This document shows positions 8,624 through 12,822 of a stretch of 64,000 nt of DNA, one piece after another. A program made the position numbers and the translations under genes. The notes beneath the pieces are model-generated. The model did no database searches. It was not told where the DNA came from and was given only the letters and a program-made list of their open reading frames with translations. Where the stretch lies: contig JAHBUK010000002.1 of assembly GCA_019638115.1 (NCBI GenBank), positions 5,867 through 69,866 of the forward strand, given 5' to 3'. Within the stretch, counting starts at the first letter, position 1. Each line of letters opens with the position of its first letter. Source of the DNA: Flavobacteriales bacterium (GTDB lineage: Bacteria > Bacteroidota > Bacteroidia > Flavobacteriales_F > PHOS-HE28).

Positions 8624-10675
8624 ATGTCCCTCGAAGCCACCGAAAAACGCCAGCTCACCTACGAGCGCGGCAACCACAGCGACGCTTTCCTCATCAGCAC
8701 CTACGAGAAGCTGGTGTACCCGCGCATCATCGAAGAGAAGATGCTGAGCCTGCTGCGGCAGGGCAAGATCAGCAAGTGGTTCAGCGGCATCGGGCAGGAG
8801 GCCATCGCCGTGGGCGCCACCATGGCCCTGCAGGACGACGAGTACATCCTGCCCATGCACCGCAATCTGGGCGTATTCACCACGCGGGGCATGCCTTTCC
8901 GCAAGCTGTTCGCGCAGTGGCAGGGCAAGGCCACGGGCTACAGCAAGGGCCGCGAGCGAAGCTTCCACTTCGGCAGCCAGGAGCACAAGGTGGTGGGCAT
9001 GATCAGCCACCTTGGGCCGCAGATGGGCATCGCCGATGGCATCGCGCTGGCCCACAAGCTTAAGAAGGAGAACCGCTGCACCATCGTCTTCACCGGCGAT
9101 GGCGCCACGAGCGAGGGCGATTTCCACGAGAGCGTGAACGTGGCGGCGGTGTGGGACCTGCCCGTGCTGTTCATCATTGAGAACAACGGCTACGGACTGA
9201 GCACGCCCAGCAGCGAGCAGTTCCGCATGAAGCAGTTCACCGACAAGGCCATCGGCTATGGCATCGAAACGGTACAACTGGCGGGCAACAACATCTTGGA
9301 GGTGTACGACGCCCTGGCGTGGTGGGCCAACAGCGTGCGCGAGAACCCGCGTCCGGTGCTGATCGAATGCATGACCTTCCGCATGCGCGGTCACGAAGAG
9401 GCCAGCGGCACCAAGTACGTTCCCAAAGAGCTGTTCGAGGAGTGGGGCAGGAAGGATCCCGTGGCCAACTACGAGAATTGGCTGGTGGCGACGGGTGTGC
9501 TGACCATTGCCCAGAAGGACGAGATCCGTGCGCGGCTGAAGGACGGCATCGAAGCCGATCTGAAGGTGGCGTTCGAGGAGCCGGAACCGGTGCCGGTGGA
9601 AACCGCTGAGGTTGGGGACGTGTATGCAAATTCCGCCACTGGCCTATTGCCGCTGGCTACTGGCCCCTTGGAGGATCGGGCCAGTAGCCAGCAGCCAATA
9701 GCCATTGGCGAGTCCCGCGAGATCAGAATGATCGACGCCATCCAGGAAGGCATGCGTCAAAGCATGGAACGCCACCCGGAATTGGTGCTGATGGGCCAGG
9801 ACATCGCCGAGTACGGCGGGGCCTTCAAGATCACGGACGGTTTCGTGGAGAAGTTCGGCAAGGACCGGGTGCGCAATACGCCGCTGTGCGAGAGCGCCAT
9901 CCTGGGTGCGGCGCTGGGCCTCAGCATCAAGGGCATGAAGGCCATGATGGAGATGCAGTTCGCCGATTTCGTGAGCGAGGGTATGACCCAGATCTGCAAC
10001 AACCTGGCGAAGATCCATTACCGCTGGGGGCAGCACGCCGATGTGGTGGTGCGCATGCCCACTGGCGCCGGAGTGGGGGCGGGGCCCTTCCACAGCCAGA
10101 GCAACGAGATGTGGTTCGTGAAGACGCCCGGCCTGAAGGTGGTGTACCCCAGCAACCCCTACGACGCCAAGGGCCTGCTGATGACCGCCTTCGACGACCC
10201 GAACCCGGTGATGTTCTTCGAGCACAAAGCGATGTACCGCAGTATCAGCGGACCGGTGCCTGAGCAGCCGTACAGCATACCCTTCGGCAAGGCGCGGGTG
10301 GTGCGCGAGGGCAGCGACCTGAGCATCATCACATACGGAATGGGTGTGCATTGGGCGACGGCCGTGCAGGAGGAGACGGGCATCAGCATGGACATCATCG
10401 ACCTGCGTACGCTCGTACCCTTGGACGTGGAGACCATCCTCGCCAGCGTGAAGAAGACCGGTAAGGTGCTGCTGCTGCACGAGGACACACTGACCGCCGG
10501 TTTCGGTGGCGAGCTGGCGGCCATCATCGCAGAGCAGGCCTTCGAGTACCTGGATGCCCCGATCATGCGTGTGGCCAGCTGGGATACGCCGGTGCCCTTC
10601 GCGGTGCCGTTGGAGCAGGGTTTCCTGCCGAAGGGACGGTTGAGGGAGGCGGTGGAACGGTTGGCGGGGTATTAG
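8624..10675 (+). CDS. fused alpha/beta E1 component of a 2-oxoacid (pyruvate/branched-chain) dehydrogenase, TPP-dependent
   Basis: The N-terminal half is E1-alpha-like (TPP motif region GDGATSEGDFHESVN). The C-terminal half is E1-beta-like (LVLMGQDIAEYGGAFKIT..., FEHKAMYR). This fusion is common in Bacteroidota. Confidence 0.85.
   Translation: MSLEATEKRQLTYERGNHSDAFLISTYEKLVYPRIIEEKMLSLLRQGKISKWFSGIGQEAIAVGATMALQDDEYILPMHRNLGVFTTRGMPFRKLFAQWQGKATGYSKGRERSFHFGSQEHKVVGMISHLGPQMGIADGIALAHKLKKENRCTIVFTGDGATSEGDFHESVNVAAVWDLPVLFIIENNGYGLSTPSSEQFRMKQFTDKAIGYGIETVQLAGNNILEVYDALAWWANSVRENPRPVLIECMTFRMRGHEEASGTKYVPKELFEEWGRKDPVANYENWLVATGVLTIAQKDEIRARLKDGIEADLKVAFEEPEPVPVETAEVGDVYANSATGLLPLATGPLEDRASSQQPIAIGESREIRMIDAIQEGMRQSMERHPELVLMGQDIAEYGGAFKITDGFVEKFGKDRVRNTPLCESAILGAALGLSIKGMKAMMEMQFADFVSEGMTQICNNLAKIHYRWGQHADVVVRMPTGAGVGAGPFHSQSNEMWFVKTPGLKVVYPSNPYDAKGLLMTAFDDPNPVMFFEHKAMYRSISGPVPEQPYSIPFGKARVVREGSDLSIITYGMGVHWATAVQEETGISMDIIDLRTLVPLDVETILASVKKTGKVLLLHEDTLTAGFGGELAAIIAEQAFEYLDAPIMRVASWDTPVPFAVPLEQGFLPKGRLREAVERLAGY
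9635..9708. repeat. imperfect ~30-bp inverted repeat (hairpin) located in-frame in the E1 alpha-beta linker
   Basis: ccactggcctattgccgctggctactggcc ... ggccagtagccagcagccaatagccattgg encodes the linker TGLLPLATGPLEDRASSQQPIAIG. Confidence 0.65.
10601..10675. repeat. direct repeat copy 1 (native 3' end of E1 gene)
   Basis: The 75 bp gcggtgccgttggagcagggtttcctgccgaagggacggttgagggaggcggtggaacggttggcggggtattag is repeated about 90% identical at 11225-11299. Confidence 0.8.
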
Positions 10676-10691
10676 GTCGCTGATCGGCATC

Positions 10692-10716
10692 CCACTGCCG
10701 GTGATCGTGGCACCGG
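10692..10716 (+). terminator. hairpin just downstream of E1 stop (9-bp perfect stem ctgccggtg/caccggcag), no T-run
   Basis: It was seen directly. The function is inferred. Confidence 0.3.
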
Positions 10717-10850
10717 CAGCGTCGACTAGGCTGACCGACCGATGGTGATGGACGCGATCAACCTCCTACCACCACATTTTCGGCCGGGACCTTTTCCATC
10801 GAATGCTTCCGTGATTTGTGACACGCCCTTCCCATGAATAGTTTCGCTCC

Positions 10851-11189
10851 ATGCCTTTGGACGTGGACTCTCTGATAGAACGCGGTCTGACCCTGAAAAG
10901 GGAAGGCGGCAGTGGACGTCAGCTCAGTGAATTCCTCGAGCGTGAAGGCGCTGATGAAGGAGCCCGCCGCTTCATCCTGCGGCAGATCGACAAGCGGTTG
11001 CTGAAGGAGCACCAAGCCAAGGGTTCGGGGATGTACCAAAGCATGAAGGGATTCCTGGGCTTCGGGTTGATGGCGGGCGGAGCGCTACTGGGGTGGTTCC
11101 TATGGGCGGGGATCGACGGCTGGAACGTAATCAGCACAGTGCCCTTCATCATGTTCGGAGCAGGTCTGTGGGTGCTGAATTCGAAGTAG
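10851..11189 (+). CDS. hypothetical small membrane protein (soluble N-terminal ~65 aa + two C-terminal TM helices)
   Basis: The ORF has the hydrophobic stretches GFLGFGLMAGGALLGWFLWAGI and VISTVPFIMFGAGLWVL. It lies inside the segment bounded by the E1 3'-end duplication. Confidence 0.5.
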   Translation: MPLDVDSLIERGLTLKREGGSGRQLSEFLEREGADEGARRFILRQIDKRLLKEHQAKGSGMYQSMKGFLGFGLMAGGALLGWFLWAGIDGWNVISTVPFIMFGAGLWVLNSK

Positions 11190-11224
11190 GGGAGATTCTC
11201 TAGGGTATCTGCAGTCGTGCTTAG

Positions 11225-11299
11225 CGGTGCCGTTGGAGTAGGGGTTCCTGGCGAAGGGAAGGTTGAGGGAGGGGGTGGGACGGTTGGCGGGGTATTGAA
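11225..11299. repeat. direct repeat copy 2 (diverged duplicate of E1 gene 3' end)
   Basis: gcggtgccgttggagtaggggttcctggcgaagggaaggttgagggagggggtgggacggttggcggggtattga has about 8 mismatches versus copy 1. Confidence 0.8.
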
Positions 11300-11324
11300 T
11301 GCATGTAAAAAGTTTGAGGACGAC

Positions 11325-12044
11325 ATGAAGAACGGCGCAGTCCTTTTATTGGATGTCCTAGGATGGAAGGGCATATGGCTCCGAAGGTCTGATGCTATTG
11401 AAGCAATGCTGCAACTGGTTGCTAGTTGTCGGGATGCAATATCTTCTTTTTCGGGTGATAAGGTAATGGGGGATAGGTTTTCCGGATTAAGGGTTGAAGT
11501 GCTTACAATATCAGATACTATTGCAATTACTTGCCATGGTGAATTAGATGAATCTGTCGAACTACTTTCTTATGTGGGAAACTATTTAATCATTAATGGA
11601 ATAGGGTGTCATTTGCCGCTGCGAGGTGCGTTAAGTTATGGTCTTTTTAAGTCTTCGAGTAACGTGTTGTTGGGACCTGCGGTAGATGAGGTAGCATCTT
11701 GGTATGAAAATTCAGAATGGATTGGGGGATTCTTAACACCTTCAGCTTCCTTGAAAGTGAATATCGATAATTTTGTTTATCCTCATCTGTTGGTTCGCCA
11801 TGATGTTCCAACGAAAAATGGCACGTACAAAAATGGATTGTGCTTGAACTGGCCTATTGTTTGGGCATCAGAAGAGAATGCTGTAGAGGCTAGGGATAGA
11901 TTCATTTCTCATATCCTGAATTTAGGTCCATCTATGCCCGAAGTATATTCAAAGCTTAGTAATACGATTGATTTTTATGATAAAAATTCCACTCCGGATA
12001 GGGAGAATTTTTCCGAGCTAAAGGACCGGTTTGAAGATAGTTAG
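11325..12044 (+). CDS. standalone class III nucleotidyl cyclase-like (adenylate/guanylate cyclase - GGDEF palm fold) protein, AT-rich foreign gene
   Basis: The coding region is about 40% GC, against a background near 64%. Its motifs align to the class III AC catalytic domain. LLLDVLGWKG matches F.DIVGFT with metal Asp 1. FSGDKVMG matches FVGDAIM with metal Asp 2. GIGCHLPLRGALSYGLF matches GIH.G.AVVGLFG. LGPAVDEVASWYE matches IGPSVNIAARLQE, but with Asn to Asp and Arg to Trp substitutions. Confidence 0.55.
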   Translation: MKNGAVLLLDVLGWKGIWLRRSDAIEAMLQLVASCRDAISSFSGDKVMGDRFSGLRVEVLTISDTIAITCHGELDESVELLSYVGNYLIINGIGCHLPLRGALSYGLFKSSSNVLLGPAVDEVASWYENSEWIGGFLTPSASLKVNIDNFVYPHLLVRHDVPTKNGTYKNGLCLNWPIVWASEENAVEARDRFISHILNLGPSMPEVYSKLSNTIDFYDKNSTPDRENFSELKDRFEDS

Positions 12045-12133
12045 AATTGGAATGTCTGCCTGCCCATTCTTCGTGCTCTTGCCCGATCTATTCGGACCGG
12101 CGGACACGCGCTGCGCAACGTTCTAGGCATGAC

Positions 12134-12361
12134 CTAATTCGCAGGAAGGATCAGCTCATCCAACTTCTTCACCTTCTTCATCACTTTCCCATCCTTGTTC
12201 ACCATCACCAACCATCCATCGCGCTCCACCATGATGGTCTTGCGCACTGAGAACGCCTGCCGCTCCGCGCGCTTCATAGCCGTCTTAAAGGCCTTGGCCA
12301 TGGCTTCACCTTCAGCACTGGGTTTCTTGCGGGTGATGATGGTGGTCTTCTTCACTGGCAT
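12134..12361 (-). CDS. small conserved hypothetical protein (75 aa, lysine-rich)
   Basis: The ORF is MPVKKTTIITRKKPSAEGEAMAKAFKTAMKRAERQAFSV..., with native GC and no overlap with a better gene. Confidence 0.5.
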   Translation of the reverse strand: MPVKKTTIITRKKPSAEGEAMAKAFKTAMKRAERQAFSVRKTIMVERDGWLVMVNKDGKVMKKVKKLDELILPAN

Positions 12362-12432
12362 GCTTCAAAGTTAGCAGGCTCGGTAACGTTCAGTACACAC
12401 GCTCAGGTCGATATTTGTATGCAGAAGAAGCC

Positions 12433-12822
12433 ATGATCCCCATGCGCCCCATCCTCCCCATCCTTCTCGCGGCCCTCTCCCTCACCGCCTGCGTCAAACC
12501 CGACGACATCCACGAGGGCGACTACCACGTGGCCAACCACCTCAGCACCGGTCTGAAGGTCTACGCGGAGTACCGGAACCAGCCCGTGTCCTTGCTGCGT
12601 GACACCGTGCCGCCTGGTGATACGGTCCACATCCACCATGTGAAGGAAGGCAGCGGTGGCCACGTTTACCCCAGCAACTTCTTCTCGGTGTTCCGGATCA
12701 CCACGGTGGACAGCGGCGGTGCCGAGGTGATCGTCCATCAAGGGCTGGACCATCGGCCTTGGCGGACGTGGGATACTGGAACACAAGGCAAAGCGCTTCA
12801 ACTACTGCTGGTGGTGGAGTGA
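12433..12822 (+). CDS. hypothetical lipoprotein
   Basis: It has the lipobox-like signal MIPMRPILPILLAALSLTAC. Confidence 0.5.
   Translation: MIPMRPILPILLAALSLTACVKPDDIHEGDYHVANHLSTGLKVYAEYRNQPVSLLRDTVPPGDTVHIHHVKEGSGGHVYPSNFFSVFRITTVDSGGAEVIVHQGLDHRPWRTWDTGTQGKALQLLLVVE

Follow-up and report, generated by a model that had tools for sequence, protein, structure and literature searches.

Does the AT-rich gene that lies behind an E1 dehydrogenase gene in the window, the 64-kb stretch of DNA analysed here, encode the signal-generating cyclase of a compact defence cassette, as a first-pass annotation of the sequence proposed, or an enzyme of another kind? Few signalling enzymes have been studied as thoroughly as class III cyclases, and the example of Pycsar has made clear that immunity is one of the roles they can fill. 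The analysis below leads us to conclude that the product of the gene, hereafter B, is most likely a metal-dependent NTP-converting enzyme, predicted to be used in conflict or defence. The features of the locus are collected in Table 1.

Table 1. Features of the B locus, with positions in the window
Feature	Position	Strand	Basis or remark
E1 dehydrogenase (alpha-beta fused); its 3′ end anchors the hotspot	8624..10675	+	Pfam E1_dh, Transket_pyr, Transketolase_C
Repeat R1, functional 3′ end of the E1 gene, then TAG stop	10597..10673	+	77-nt direct repeat, alignment
546-bp inserted segment with the 2-TM ORF	10674..11219	+	blastn of L001 against the window
112-aa ORF with two C-terminal hydrophobic helices (2-TM ORF)	10851..11189	+	independent cassette
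Repeat R2, displaced dead E1 3′ end	11220..11296	+	directly upstream of B
Gene for the 239-aa cyclase-fold protein (B, solo clade)	11325..12044	+	stop codon included
D10 codon, predicted metal Asp 1 (LLDVLGWKG, end of strand beta1)	11352..11354	+	conservation, hhalign
D64 codon, predicted metal Asp 2 (SISDTI, beta2-beta3 hairpin turn)	11514..11516	+	conservation, model position
R100 codon, predicted triphosphate-binding Arg (PLRGA, start of beta4)	11622..11624	+	conservation, hhalign
D121-E122-V-A-S-W126 codons, helix alpha4, place of the canonical transition-state Asn/Arg	11685..11702	+	conservation, hhalign
K164 codon, predicted phosphate-binding Lys (beta7-beta8 turn)	11814..11816	+	conservation, hhalign
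75-aa basic ORF, convergent with B	12134..12361	-	within the variable segment
Conserved 129-135-aa gene, right edge of the variable hotspot	12415..12822	+	synteny with L060

A foreign gene in an insertion hotspot

The plus-strand open reading frame that contains the gene extends from a GTG at 11217 to 12044. An alignment with 12 homologs and an independent gene call in the same genome both place the true start at the ATG at 11325, giving a protein of 239 aa, and what precedes this ATG in the frame is a defunct second copy of the E1 dehydrogenase gene's 3′ terminus. As annotated, the protein stands alone and has no sensor or regulatory domain.

The GC content of the gene is 0.406, compared with a window mean of 0.608 (sd 0.037, 400-nt windows), and lies 20 points under that of the host. 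The segment 11201-12300 is the sole one below 0.50 within the 64-kb window, and the dip, about 5.6 sd from the mean, is not due to chance. In addition, B was AT-richer than its own flanks in 40 of 47 loci. These results indicate that the window gene is compositionally foreign and was probably acquired by horizontal transfer, as the first-pass annotation had claimed; the background of about 64% that it set against the 40% of the gene is in fact nearer 61-63%.

The window gene is real and functional, and is under strong purifying selection: dN/dS was about 0.05 against the 81%-identical ortholog in the sister genome L001, with dS near saturation. This ratio, together with the intact motifs, argues against decay of the gene. 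No sigma70 promoter or terminator was found by a scan of 10500-12500, the sigma70 scan being of little value for Bacteroidota, and Rfam and tRNA scans of the 64-kb window yielded no matches.

The architecture of the site is that of a hotspot. The two 77-nt direct repeats, R1 and R2, are 91% identical, confirming the insertion scars that had been suspected, and the insertion that they bound, which holds the 2-TM ORF, measures 623 bp. The 3′ end of the E1 gene of L001 matched both repeats in blastn, with nothing between them in L001, and the inserted 546-bp segment is missing from both L001 and L012. R2 carries an in-frame TAG and retains the ancestral TGA stop. On the right side, the gene at the edge of the variable segment shows 79% nucleotide identity to positions 6758-7148 of L060, where synteny resumes. 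The convergent 75-aa ORF had no family match and no homolog in any fetched locus, and it is therefore not a conserved partner. The hotspot expands through repeated duplication of a housekeeping gene's 3′ end, which provides a handle for finding more mobile single-gene cargo in these Flavobacteriales.

The distribution of B among the sister genomes also bears on whether B serves the metabolism of its host. B is present in three of the five, with 81% and 45% identity, versus 86-89% for the E1 protein between the window and L001, L012, L058, and L060. Its position right after the E1 gene in three related genomes would suit an ordinary housekeeping role for the cyclase, or a metabolic one in support of the E1 dehydrogenase. 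However, two of the sister genomes lack B though their E1 protein is 89% identical to that of the window, the neighbours of B elsewhere are entirely different, and the low GC content is not that of a host gene. Purifying selection likewise speaks against a decaying functionless remnant, and we give these readings, taken together, very little probability.

The first-pass annotation had counted the adjacent 2-TM protein as part of the cassette. In L001 and L012, B directly follows the E1 gene, and no 2-TM gene is present; conversely, in L058 and L060 the 2-TM gene occupies the same hotspot, and the B HMM found no match there. Because each gene is inherited without the other, the 2-TM ORF is ruled out as the partner of B; it is an unrelated cargo of the hotspot. 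Only three homologs of the ORF were found, and it had no Pfam or PADLOC match and no nucleotide-sensing domain.

These observations leave little room for the proposal of a compact cassette of the Pycsar, CBASS or Panoptes kind, in which B, as the cyclase, generates the signal and the 112-aa 2-TM protein is the membrane effector. The proposal draws on the predicted cyclase fold of B, on the small membrane protein encoded 135 nt upstream on the same strand, and on the fact that Panoptes and Pycsar pair small synthases with TM effectors. However, the two genes are separable as described, the membrane protein has no nucleotide-binding domain, and no TM or cNMP-binding gene is conserved beside B in about 50 loci. 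We regard this cassette as highly improbable.

Predicted fold and active site of B

The window protein had no match in Pfam, PADLOC, NCBIfam, or PHROGs at E ≤ 1, and profile searches of the PDB with 13 and with 74 B sequences returned noise only. Among the 74 relatives, one matched PF00211 (E 0.002), and PF00990 was absent from the 25 Pfam families listed of the 31 that these members matched. In the literature on 3FY6, PF21648, cyclase-like defence systems, and integron cassettes, no description of the B family was found. At the sequence level, B appears to lie outside every described family.

Sequence-profile identification having failed, the fold was established from an AlphaFold model, which indicates that B has the palm fold of class III adenylyl/guanylyl cyclases (the cyclase-homology domain). 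The model agrees with the class III half of the annotated resemblance to class III cyclases and GGDEF proteins; for the GGDEF half, neither the hairpin motif nor a match to the Pfam profile was found. Comparison by profile and structure gave, in all, a predicted cyclase fold but no membership in PF00211, PF00990, Pycsar, or mCpol. Alignment of B with Rv1625c by hhalign was colinear, and the residue equivalences given below rest on this low-probability match (Prob 2%, E 0.023) together with secondary-structure position.

The family is large: a threshold of E ≤ 1e-3 gave about 4,400 cluster representatives, one of E ≤ 1e-10 gave 1,840, and its clusters at 50% identity number in the thousands. 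The 46 genome loci span Bacteroidota, Bacillota, Myxococcota, Bdellovibrio, Planctomycetota, Lentisphaerota, and Methanosarcina. Phage genomes contained no B homolog, and only seven loci were found in IMG/VR and three on plasmids.

The motifs quoted in the annotation are all present, namely LLLDVLGWKG (residues 7-16), FSGDKVMG (42-49), GIGCHLPLRGALSYGLF (92-108), and VDEVASWYE (120-128), but their assigned roles fared differently. The first predicted metal Asp stands: D10 did not vary among 13 homologs, its conservation in a set of 74 was at least 90%, and hhalign pairs it with D256 of Rv1625c. The Asp of FSGDKVMG (D45) was rejected as the second, as it lies in a variable loop (block pLDDT 69) and is Ala in the closest ortholog. 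The conserved Asp is instead D64 of TISDTIA, where S63 does not vary across the B homologs and the conservation of D64-T65 is at least 90%. D64 falls between model strands 56-62 and 65-71, and hhalign sets it two residues from D300 of Rv1625c; we infer, from its position in the hairpin of the model, that it is the probable second metal Asp.

Two predicted phosphate ligands also appear to be kept. R100 is invariant in the 74 sequences and is aligned to the Arg of PLRVG in Rv1625c, and K164 is at least 90% conserved and is aligned to the lysine region of VKGKG. The RGA..YG block, annotated as a retained dimer interface, is conserved across the family.

In contrast, the catalytic helix differs from that of canonical cyclases. 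D121 is invariant and E122 and W126 are at least 90% conserved; hhalign equates D121 with N372 and W126 with R376 of Rv1625c and treats E122 as an inserted residue. By this alignment, the canonical Asn/Arg pair is replaced in B by the acidic pair D121-E122 and by W126, so that the replacement noted in the first-pass annotation extends to the whole family. The pair that specifies the base (Lys/Asp for ATP, Glu/Cys for GTP) was not found at the expected positions of B: four residues before D64 lies L60, in a variable column, and seven before D121/E122 lie V114/L115. In addition, residues from about 176 to 239 form an extra C-terminal helical extension with conserved W176, K210, N213, and F217.

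Having lost the canonical transition-state residues, B could be catalytically dead. A pseudo-cyclase of this sort might bind nucleotides without turning them over and serve as a sensor or scaffold, as do the class III cyclase-like domains with which some STAND/LuxR regulators bind ATP (PDB 6YII). Against this, the two predicted metal Asps, like R100 and K164, vary little or not at all in a diverse set of 74 members, the new invariant acidic pair on the catalytic helix gives a pattern typical of an altered but live site, and the 239-aa protein has no output domain. We consider a pseudo-cyclase improbable. The combination of a predicted, kept metal/triphosphate site and a rebuilt catalytic helix runs throughout a large, multi-phylum family, and B, if active, would either make a nucleotide product not seen before or represent an unprecedented way of defence, by an NTP-consuming effector of the cyclase fold.

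Genomic context and proposed role of B

Most relatives of B sit in defence islands or mobile DNA. Their neighbours include BrxHI, type I restriction-modification (R-M), ResIII, AAA_21, AAA_15, and mad genes; one locus (L011) combines R-M with serine recombinases, and another (L004) holds a RES-like protein and a caspase. HD-CE/HATPase_c_3 with AAA_13, an integrase, and helicases were found near solo B genes, that is, those without the partner described below, and on Bacillus plasmids OLD and HNH/ATPase genes adjoin B and its partner. The annotation as a signalling or defence cassette is borne out in the ties of the family to defence islands and mobile DNA, but not in the window locus itself, which has no effector or receptor gene and no recognisable defence or mobility gene within ±3 kb.

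The recurrent partner elsewhere is a protein of about 220 aa, hereafter A, encoded directly before B or fused to it. A is PF21648-like (PF21648 being 'M1E1E6-like integron cassette protein'), and its C-terminal half resembles PDB 3FY6. The gene overlaps or abuts that of B in an operon layout. A reading of the upstream gene as a paralogous second cyclase was a single-linkage artefact caused by the fused A-B proteins; when aligned, A and B proved to be families without relationship to each other.

The A HMM detected A in 28 of the 46 genome loci, and found none in six-frame translations of the whole 64-kb window and of the solo loci. Nevertheless, the window protein matched an HMM of 19 paired B proteins with E 8.1e-60 and shares their invariant columns, its VDEVASWYE corresponding to VDEAASWHE in the paired proteins. 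Thirteen solo loci from several phyla cluster in a neighbour-joining tree, which carries no support values; the ORF calls of the neighbours are crude. The window gene is a member of this solo clade, which lacks A.

A is not restricted to B, and its other associates likewise lie in defence islands. Of 77 usable loci, 52 have B as the gene after A, and the others have a protein with a PD..ExK motif, DUF2971, KwaB-like, or OLD-like genes there; in P0166 A is fused to TIR_2 in one protein. The nuclease-like protein had no Pfam or PDB match, its PD..ExK motif having been assigned by eye only.

The exchange of genes behind A recalls the 'mix and match' of toxin-antitoxin (TA) systems, and B might be the toxin of a TA or addiction-type selfish module, with A as the antitoxin where paired, that maintains itself and brings the host no benefit. 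The operon layout, an HTH_26 gene upstream in Paenibacillus, and the A+B pair on plasmids fit such a module. However, there is an entire B clade that has been maintained in the absence of both A and any small neighbour that is conserved, and a length of about 220 aa and the existence of fusions to B are unusual for an antitoxin. We judge a purely selfish module rather improbable; it overlaps the reading preferred below, because many TA systems are defence systems.

Alternatively, B could generate a signal, a cNMP or another nucleotide, for a receptor whose gene lies at another place in the genome or which the host provides. The predicted two-Asp metal site and phosphate ligands are kept, and A also pairs with TIR, which can generate signals as well. 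In one solo locus (L015), the product of the next gene, 77 nt downstream of B, joins a cNMP_binding domain (E 1e-12) to a sigma54 AAA+ activator, which fits a signal-generating role better than an effector role. However, this is the only cNMP-binding neighbour in more than 120 loci examined, a single hopping gene would have to meet a suitable receptor each time it changed hosts, the Asn/Arg pair required for canonical 3′,5′-cyclisation is missing, and the other genes after A (nuclease-like, KwaB-like, DUF2971) are not signal generators. A signal generator with a distant receptor is therefore unlikely in our view.

The reading that we prefer, and to which we give somewhat less than an even chance, is that B is a solo, uncharacterised enzyme of the class III cyclase fold, horizontally acquired into the E1 hotspot, that acts as an autonomous, NTP-converting conflict or anti-phage effector. 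Its role in defence is suggested by guilt by association. B, probably a homodimer in head-to-tail arrangement, would use two divalent metals to bind an NTP and would convert it by a cyclase-type nucleotidyl chemistry unlike ordinary 3′,5′-cNMP synthesis. As an autonomous effector, it may then arrest the infected cell by NTP consumption or by a toxic or unusual nucleotide product. In the paired systems A would be a sensor or a restraint, with which the clade of the window has presumably dispensed. A toxic effector without A needs another restraint, and none is visible at B.

A wider proposal, which we put forward tentatively and consider on the doubtful side, is that A and its associates form a widespread but undescribed modular anti-phage system, in which A, the sensor or restraint, is combined with interchangeable killers (B, TIR, a PD-(D/E)xK-like nuclease, KwaB-like, and DUF2971). 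B would contribute a new chemistry, with Asp-Glu for Asn/Arg and a product that is not a 3′,5′-cNMP, and the solo genes would be single-gene immunity cassettes hopping between phyla. If B is active, A, with its fusion to TIR and its position beside further genes for candidate effectors, would add a module for sensing or regulation that is likewise new.

Comparison with known systems

B is not Pycsar, CBASS, or Panoptes. The neighbours of B in the window carry no Pfam or PADLOC domain, and neither the window B nor the paired B matched any family of PADLOC-DB v2.0.0 at E ≤ 1, a collection in which PycC models are presumably present. The annotated Pycsar, CBASS-like, or mCpol cassette did not survive these comparisons: no effector or receptor gene was found, nor were the features that define these systems.

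In CBASS, a CD-NTase of the Pol-beta-like type is combined with a Cap effector, whereas the predicted fold of B is the class III palm, no CD-NTase is among the top structural matches listed for B, and neither an effector gene nor a PADLOC match is present. The likeness to Panoptes (OptS/mCpol with a 2TM effector), that of a minimal palm enzyme beside a small 2-TM protein, is superficial only. The Panoptes synthase is a minimal polymerase palm of the Cas10 type, which B is not, and its 2TM partner has a nucleotide-sensing domain and is co-inherited, whereas the 112-aa ORF of the window shows neither property.

In PycC, the cyclase of Pycsar (PDB 7R65, 8JSZ, 8JSF), the catalytic motifs of class III are intact, and an effector that binds cNMPs, PycTM or PycTIR, invariably accompanies it (PMC11224242). 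In contrast, the window has no such effector, and the catalytic helix of B is altered.

With the class III cyclases (PF00211; Rv1625c, CyaC, sGC, and the mammalian C1/C2) B shares the predicted fold and D10, but it lacks the profile match, the Asn/Arg pair, and a sensor. The diguanylate cyclases (PF00990) have the motif GG[DE][DE]F in the hairpin, which in B reads TISDTI. The pseudo-enzyme of PDB 6YII forms the N-terminal part of a much larger regulatory protein; B, in contrast, is free-standing and keeps both predicted metal Asps. Finally, compared with the A+B module, the window protein is a bona fide B, but one that has no A in its 64-kb surroundings.

Gene B and the variable segment behind the E1 gene

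Gene B, which encodes the cyclase-like protein of the window, lies in an ORF that opens with an upstream GTG (see table). Its Met at 11325 (MKNGAV...) aligns with the first residue in all 12 homologs compared, and an independent gene call, made on this genome as recovered from another sample, begins at the same codon; B is therefore a protein of 239 aa. The GTG was ruled out as the start, the 108 nt before the ATG being a degenerate, non-coding copy of the E1 3' end. The ORF call gave no comparable ORF on the opposite strand of B. The GC content of B is 0.406, versus a mean of 0.608 (sd 0.037) for 400-nt segments of the window. Against an 81%-identical ortholog in the related-genome locus L001, dN/dS was ~0.05, with dS near saturation. 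B is thus a real gene, compositionally foreign and kept by purifying selection.

The E1 dehydrogenase gene ends in 77 nt that are repeated just upstream of B with 91% identity. Four related-genome loci carry E1 proteins that are 87% (L001), 86% (L012) and 89% (L058 and L060) identical to that of the window. In L001 and L012, B directly follows the E1 stop, and both loci lack the 623-bp segment that contains the 2-TM ORF; L058 and L060 have the 2-TM gene at this position, with other small genes around it, and no B. A housekeeping role for B tied to E1, beside which it stands in the first pair and not in the second, is disfavoured. The first-pass annotation had proposed B and the 2-TM protein, together with insertion scars, as one candidate cassette. 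The scar is present as the 77-nt repeat, which separates the two genes, and their union is disfavoured because each is found without the other in sister genomes.

In the window and in L060, the re-duplicated E1 3' ends, which stand between single-gene cassettes, are ~55-78 nt long and reach precisely to the stop codon. In each array, the E1 body runs into a copy with a new stop (TAG/TAA), and the displaced copy retains the ancestral TGA of the single-copy genomes; this is the pattern expected from Campbell-type integration of incoming DNA that brings an E1 end with it. This miniature cassette array, in which no integrase is visible, looks like a hotspot for repeated Campbell-type insertion of small circles that would bear a replacement E1 3' end. 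Within its variable segment, the window has three small genes that are unrelated to one another: the 2-TM ORF, B and a 75-aa ORF, the last with no family match and no homolog in any fetched locus. The B alleles at the E1 site are 81% and 45% identical, with E1 staying at 86-89%, which indicates that B has been replaced there or has diverged rapidly.

Two further observations concern this region. An inverted repeat with 33-nt arms, single-copy in the window, lies within the E1 coding sequence, where a linker joins the alpha and beta halves, and folds at -55 kcal/mol (z -5.7); the window-L060 alignment breaks exactly there, and the repeat may be an in-frame palindromic insertion. The first cassette behind E1 in L058 codes for a protein of 186 aa whose motifs (HDY...HFHGIL) look, by eye, like those of REP-associated tyrosine transposases; it could be relevant to the feeding of the hotspot.

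Coordinates of features in the window and in related loci
Feature	Location	Strand	Remark
Alignment break, window vs L060	9598-9730
Inverted repeat in E1	9634-9710
Last 77 nt of E1 gene	10597-10673
2-TM ORF	10851-11189	+	112 aa
Sole stretch of the window below 0.50 GC	11201-12300
ORF containing B	11217 (GTG)-12044	+	ORF call
Copy of E1 3' end	11220-11296
B	11325-12044	+	239 aa
75-aa ORF	12134-12361	-	very basic; convergent with B, within variable segment
Synteny with L060 resumes	12430
E1 3' ends, re-duplicated	L060 3685-3769; 4104-4159
Transposase-like protein (by eye)	L058 3438-3998
Neighbour of solo B	L015 8830-11268
A, example	L019 7306-7968
A and its followers, further examples	L077 4691-5251; L123 4731-5657; L074 4742-5698

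Fold and active site of B

Searches of Pfam, PADLOC, NCBIfam and PHROGs gave no match for the window B protein at E<=1, and PDB profile searches with the B family returned only noise. In the fold comparison, the AlphaFold model of B matched soluble guanylyl cyclase best (14.6), followed by AC9 (14.2), Rv1264 (14.1), AC5 C1 (14.0), the Pycsar cyclases 7R65, 8JSZ and 8JSF (11.7-11.9), GGDEF domains (about 10), Y-family polymerases (about 9) and Cas10 (8.4). Foldseek was concordant, with the Ma1120 and CyaC cyclases as top matches (E 3-5e-5). About 155 of the 239 residues superpose, and residues ~176-239 of the model form an added helical extension C-terminal to the cyclase domain. These results indicate that B, as modelled, has a class III cyclase fold; the palm-domain likeness to cyclases first noticed by eye is thus borne out, for the class III branch specifically and not for GGDEF or Cas10.

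The residues invariant or >=90% conserved among 13 close and 74 broader family members are D10 (LLDVLGWKG), S63-D64-T65 (SISDTI), R100-G-A..Y/F-G106, G117-P-A-V-D121-E122-V-A-S-W126-Y-E128, K164, W176 and K210. Their equivalences to the Rv1625c catalytic-domain sequence, which was checked against PDB entries, are based on conservation, secondary-structure position and a profile-to-sequence hhalign alignment that is weak (Prob 2%, E 0.023) yet colinear across 152 columns. In this weak alignment, D10 maps to the metal-binding D256, R100 to the Arg of PLRVG, D121 to N372, W126 to R376 and K164 to the VKGKG lysines, and D64 falls two residues off D300. The second metal Asp of class III cyclases belongs in the beta2-beta3 turn. 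D64 lies in that turn of the B model (strands 56-62 and 65-71) and is the predicted second metal Asp. D45 (FSGDKVMG), to which the first-pass annotation had assigned this role, is in the least confident and most variable loop and is Ala in the closest ortholog, which makes the assignment wrong. The replacement of the Asn/Arg transition-state pair had been read correctly, and the replacing Asp-Glu and Trp are a conserved hallmark of the family. The base-specifying positions of canonical cyclases are unconserved. Conservation across the family thus points to a two-Asp site, Arg and Lys at putative phosphate-ligand positions and an apparently remodelled catalytic helix.

B is predicted to bind an NTP together with two metals; like other class III enzymes of a single domain, it would probably do so as a head-to-tail homodimer, and its nucleotidyl chemistry would differ from ordinary 3',5'-cyclisation. 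A main rival reading is that B is a non-catalytic, nucleotide-binding pseudo-cyclase.

The B family, its neighbours and its partner A

A word-indexed search retrieved only 13 relatives. When 1.84 billion cluster representatives were searched exhaustively with a profile, 4,400 matched at E<=1e-3, of which 1,840 reached E<=1e-10 and 240 reached E<=1e-30; most are 220-270 aa long. Only one of 74 members matched PF00211 (E 0.002); canonical cyclases are therefore evidently outside this catch. A scan of one genome per species yielded 46 B loci, in Bacteroidota, Bacillota, Myxococcota, Bdellovibrio, Planctomycetota, Lentisphaerota, Acidobacteriota, Chloroflexota and Methanosarcina. In 40 of 47 loci, B is more AT-rich than the flanking DNA (mean gap 6.8 points). 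RefSeq labels plasmid-borne members "hypothetical protein", and literature searches returned no description of the family. Frameshifts or stops split or truncate B in L046, L051, L052, L053, L056 and L020, which shows that the family is frequently lost through decay too.

A Pfam and PADLOC scan of 49 large proteins encoded next to B or A+B in genome loci found the BREX helicase BrxHI directly downstream in L018 (E 9e-208), and other matches comprised type I R-M subunits, ResIII, AAA_21/AAA_15/SMC-like ATPases, mad2/mad3 and DUF4209. Solo B genes, those without the partner A, lie near a BsuBI R-M system and serine recombinases (L011), a RES-like protein and a caspase (L004), a DDE transposase fragment (L010), HD-CE/HATPase_c_3 with AAA_13, a phage integrase and a UvrD helicase; on Bacillus plasmids, A+B lies beside OLD, HNH/ATPase and recombinase genes. 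By association, these neighbours give B the signature commonly seen for genes of defence or conflict. The window carries partner-less B only, with no other defence gene in its context. A main rival reading is that B is a toxin-antitoxin-type selfish module.

ORFs were called in all loci by a crude longest-ORF rule and clustered, and a single recurrent neighbour of B was found: A, a protein of 210-250 aa encoded just 5' of B in the same orientation, so close that the two genes overlap or adjoin. An apparent paralogy of A and B was a false link through fused 445-469-aa proteins, and alignment showed the families to be unrelated. A carries the motifs HHKYMxxNRG, FYxHxHPxEDL, ANDDPxDxT and RRWGHxDxY, and its C-terminal half resembles Pfam PF21648 and PDB 3FY6 (E 3e-10); the latter is a protein from a Vibrio integron cassette, with a novel fold and an unknown function (PMC3548836). 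An A HMM detected A in 28 of the 46 genome loci, always directly 5' of B or fused with it; neither the solo loci nor the 64 kb of the window gave a match. In an NJ tree without support values, 13 solo B loci from several phyla, the window included, form one clade nested among paired B genes, and another, smaller solo clade comprises L044 and L050. The window B thus belongs to a lineage long independent of A, which, together with the low dN/dS, argues against a decaying remnant.

A metagenome search for A gave 80 loci, 77 with enough downstream sequence to judge. A was followed by B in 52 of the 77; by a 186-207-aa protein with a conserved E...D...ExK (PD-(D/E)xK-like by eye, no Pfam or PDB match) in 16, mostly from human gut; by a DUF2971 protein in two (E 7e-11, the second assigned by likeness to the first); by a KwaB-like protein in one (E 1e-27); and by an OLD-family ATPase-TOPRIM gene, ~200 nt downstream, in two. 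In one protein, P0166, A is fused to TIR_2 in B's place (E 3e-16). Some of these followers may be mere defence-island neighbours and not functional partners. Across L018-L057 and L061-L140, A is a constant module, and it may act in defence systems as a sensor or regulator not described so far; the sister architectures place B in what would be a slot held by TIR or nuclease-like modules.

Proposed role and comparison with known systems

In the window clade, B is autonomous from A, and its distribution is mobile and of defence type. A single gene that thrives after cross-phylum transfer must work without a dedicated receptor; since B also takes a TIR and possibly nuclease-like slot beside A, an effector role is tentatively favoured, our confidence falling somewhat short of even. 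The proposed effect, released upon infection, would be nucleotide depletion or a toxic nucleotide, with A as the sensor or restraint in paired systems. A main rival to the effector role holds that B generates a signal for an unlinked receptor, and one solo locus speaks for it: in L015 (Thermincola MAG), a gene with cNMP_binding, sigma54-type AAA+ activator and 4Fe-4S domains lies 77 nt downstream of B. This neighbour hints that B might make a cyclic nucleotide, and it is the sole cyclic-nucleotide-receptor neighbour among >120 loci.

B shares its fold with class III cyclases but departs from them in sequence profile, transition-state residues and specificity residues. It is not Pycsar, having neither a cNMP-binding effector nor a PADLOC match, and not CBASS, the fold being wrong. 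Nor is it Panoptes/mCpol, since it is nearer to class III cyclases than to Cas10 and has no co-inherited sensing 2TM effector, or GGDEF, whose motif and profile match it lacks. B is a member of a distinct, uncharacterised family, and the two-gene A+B form appears likewise undescribed; the B family and the A module merit experimental follow-up.
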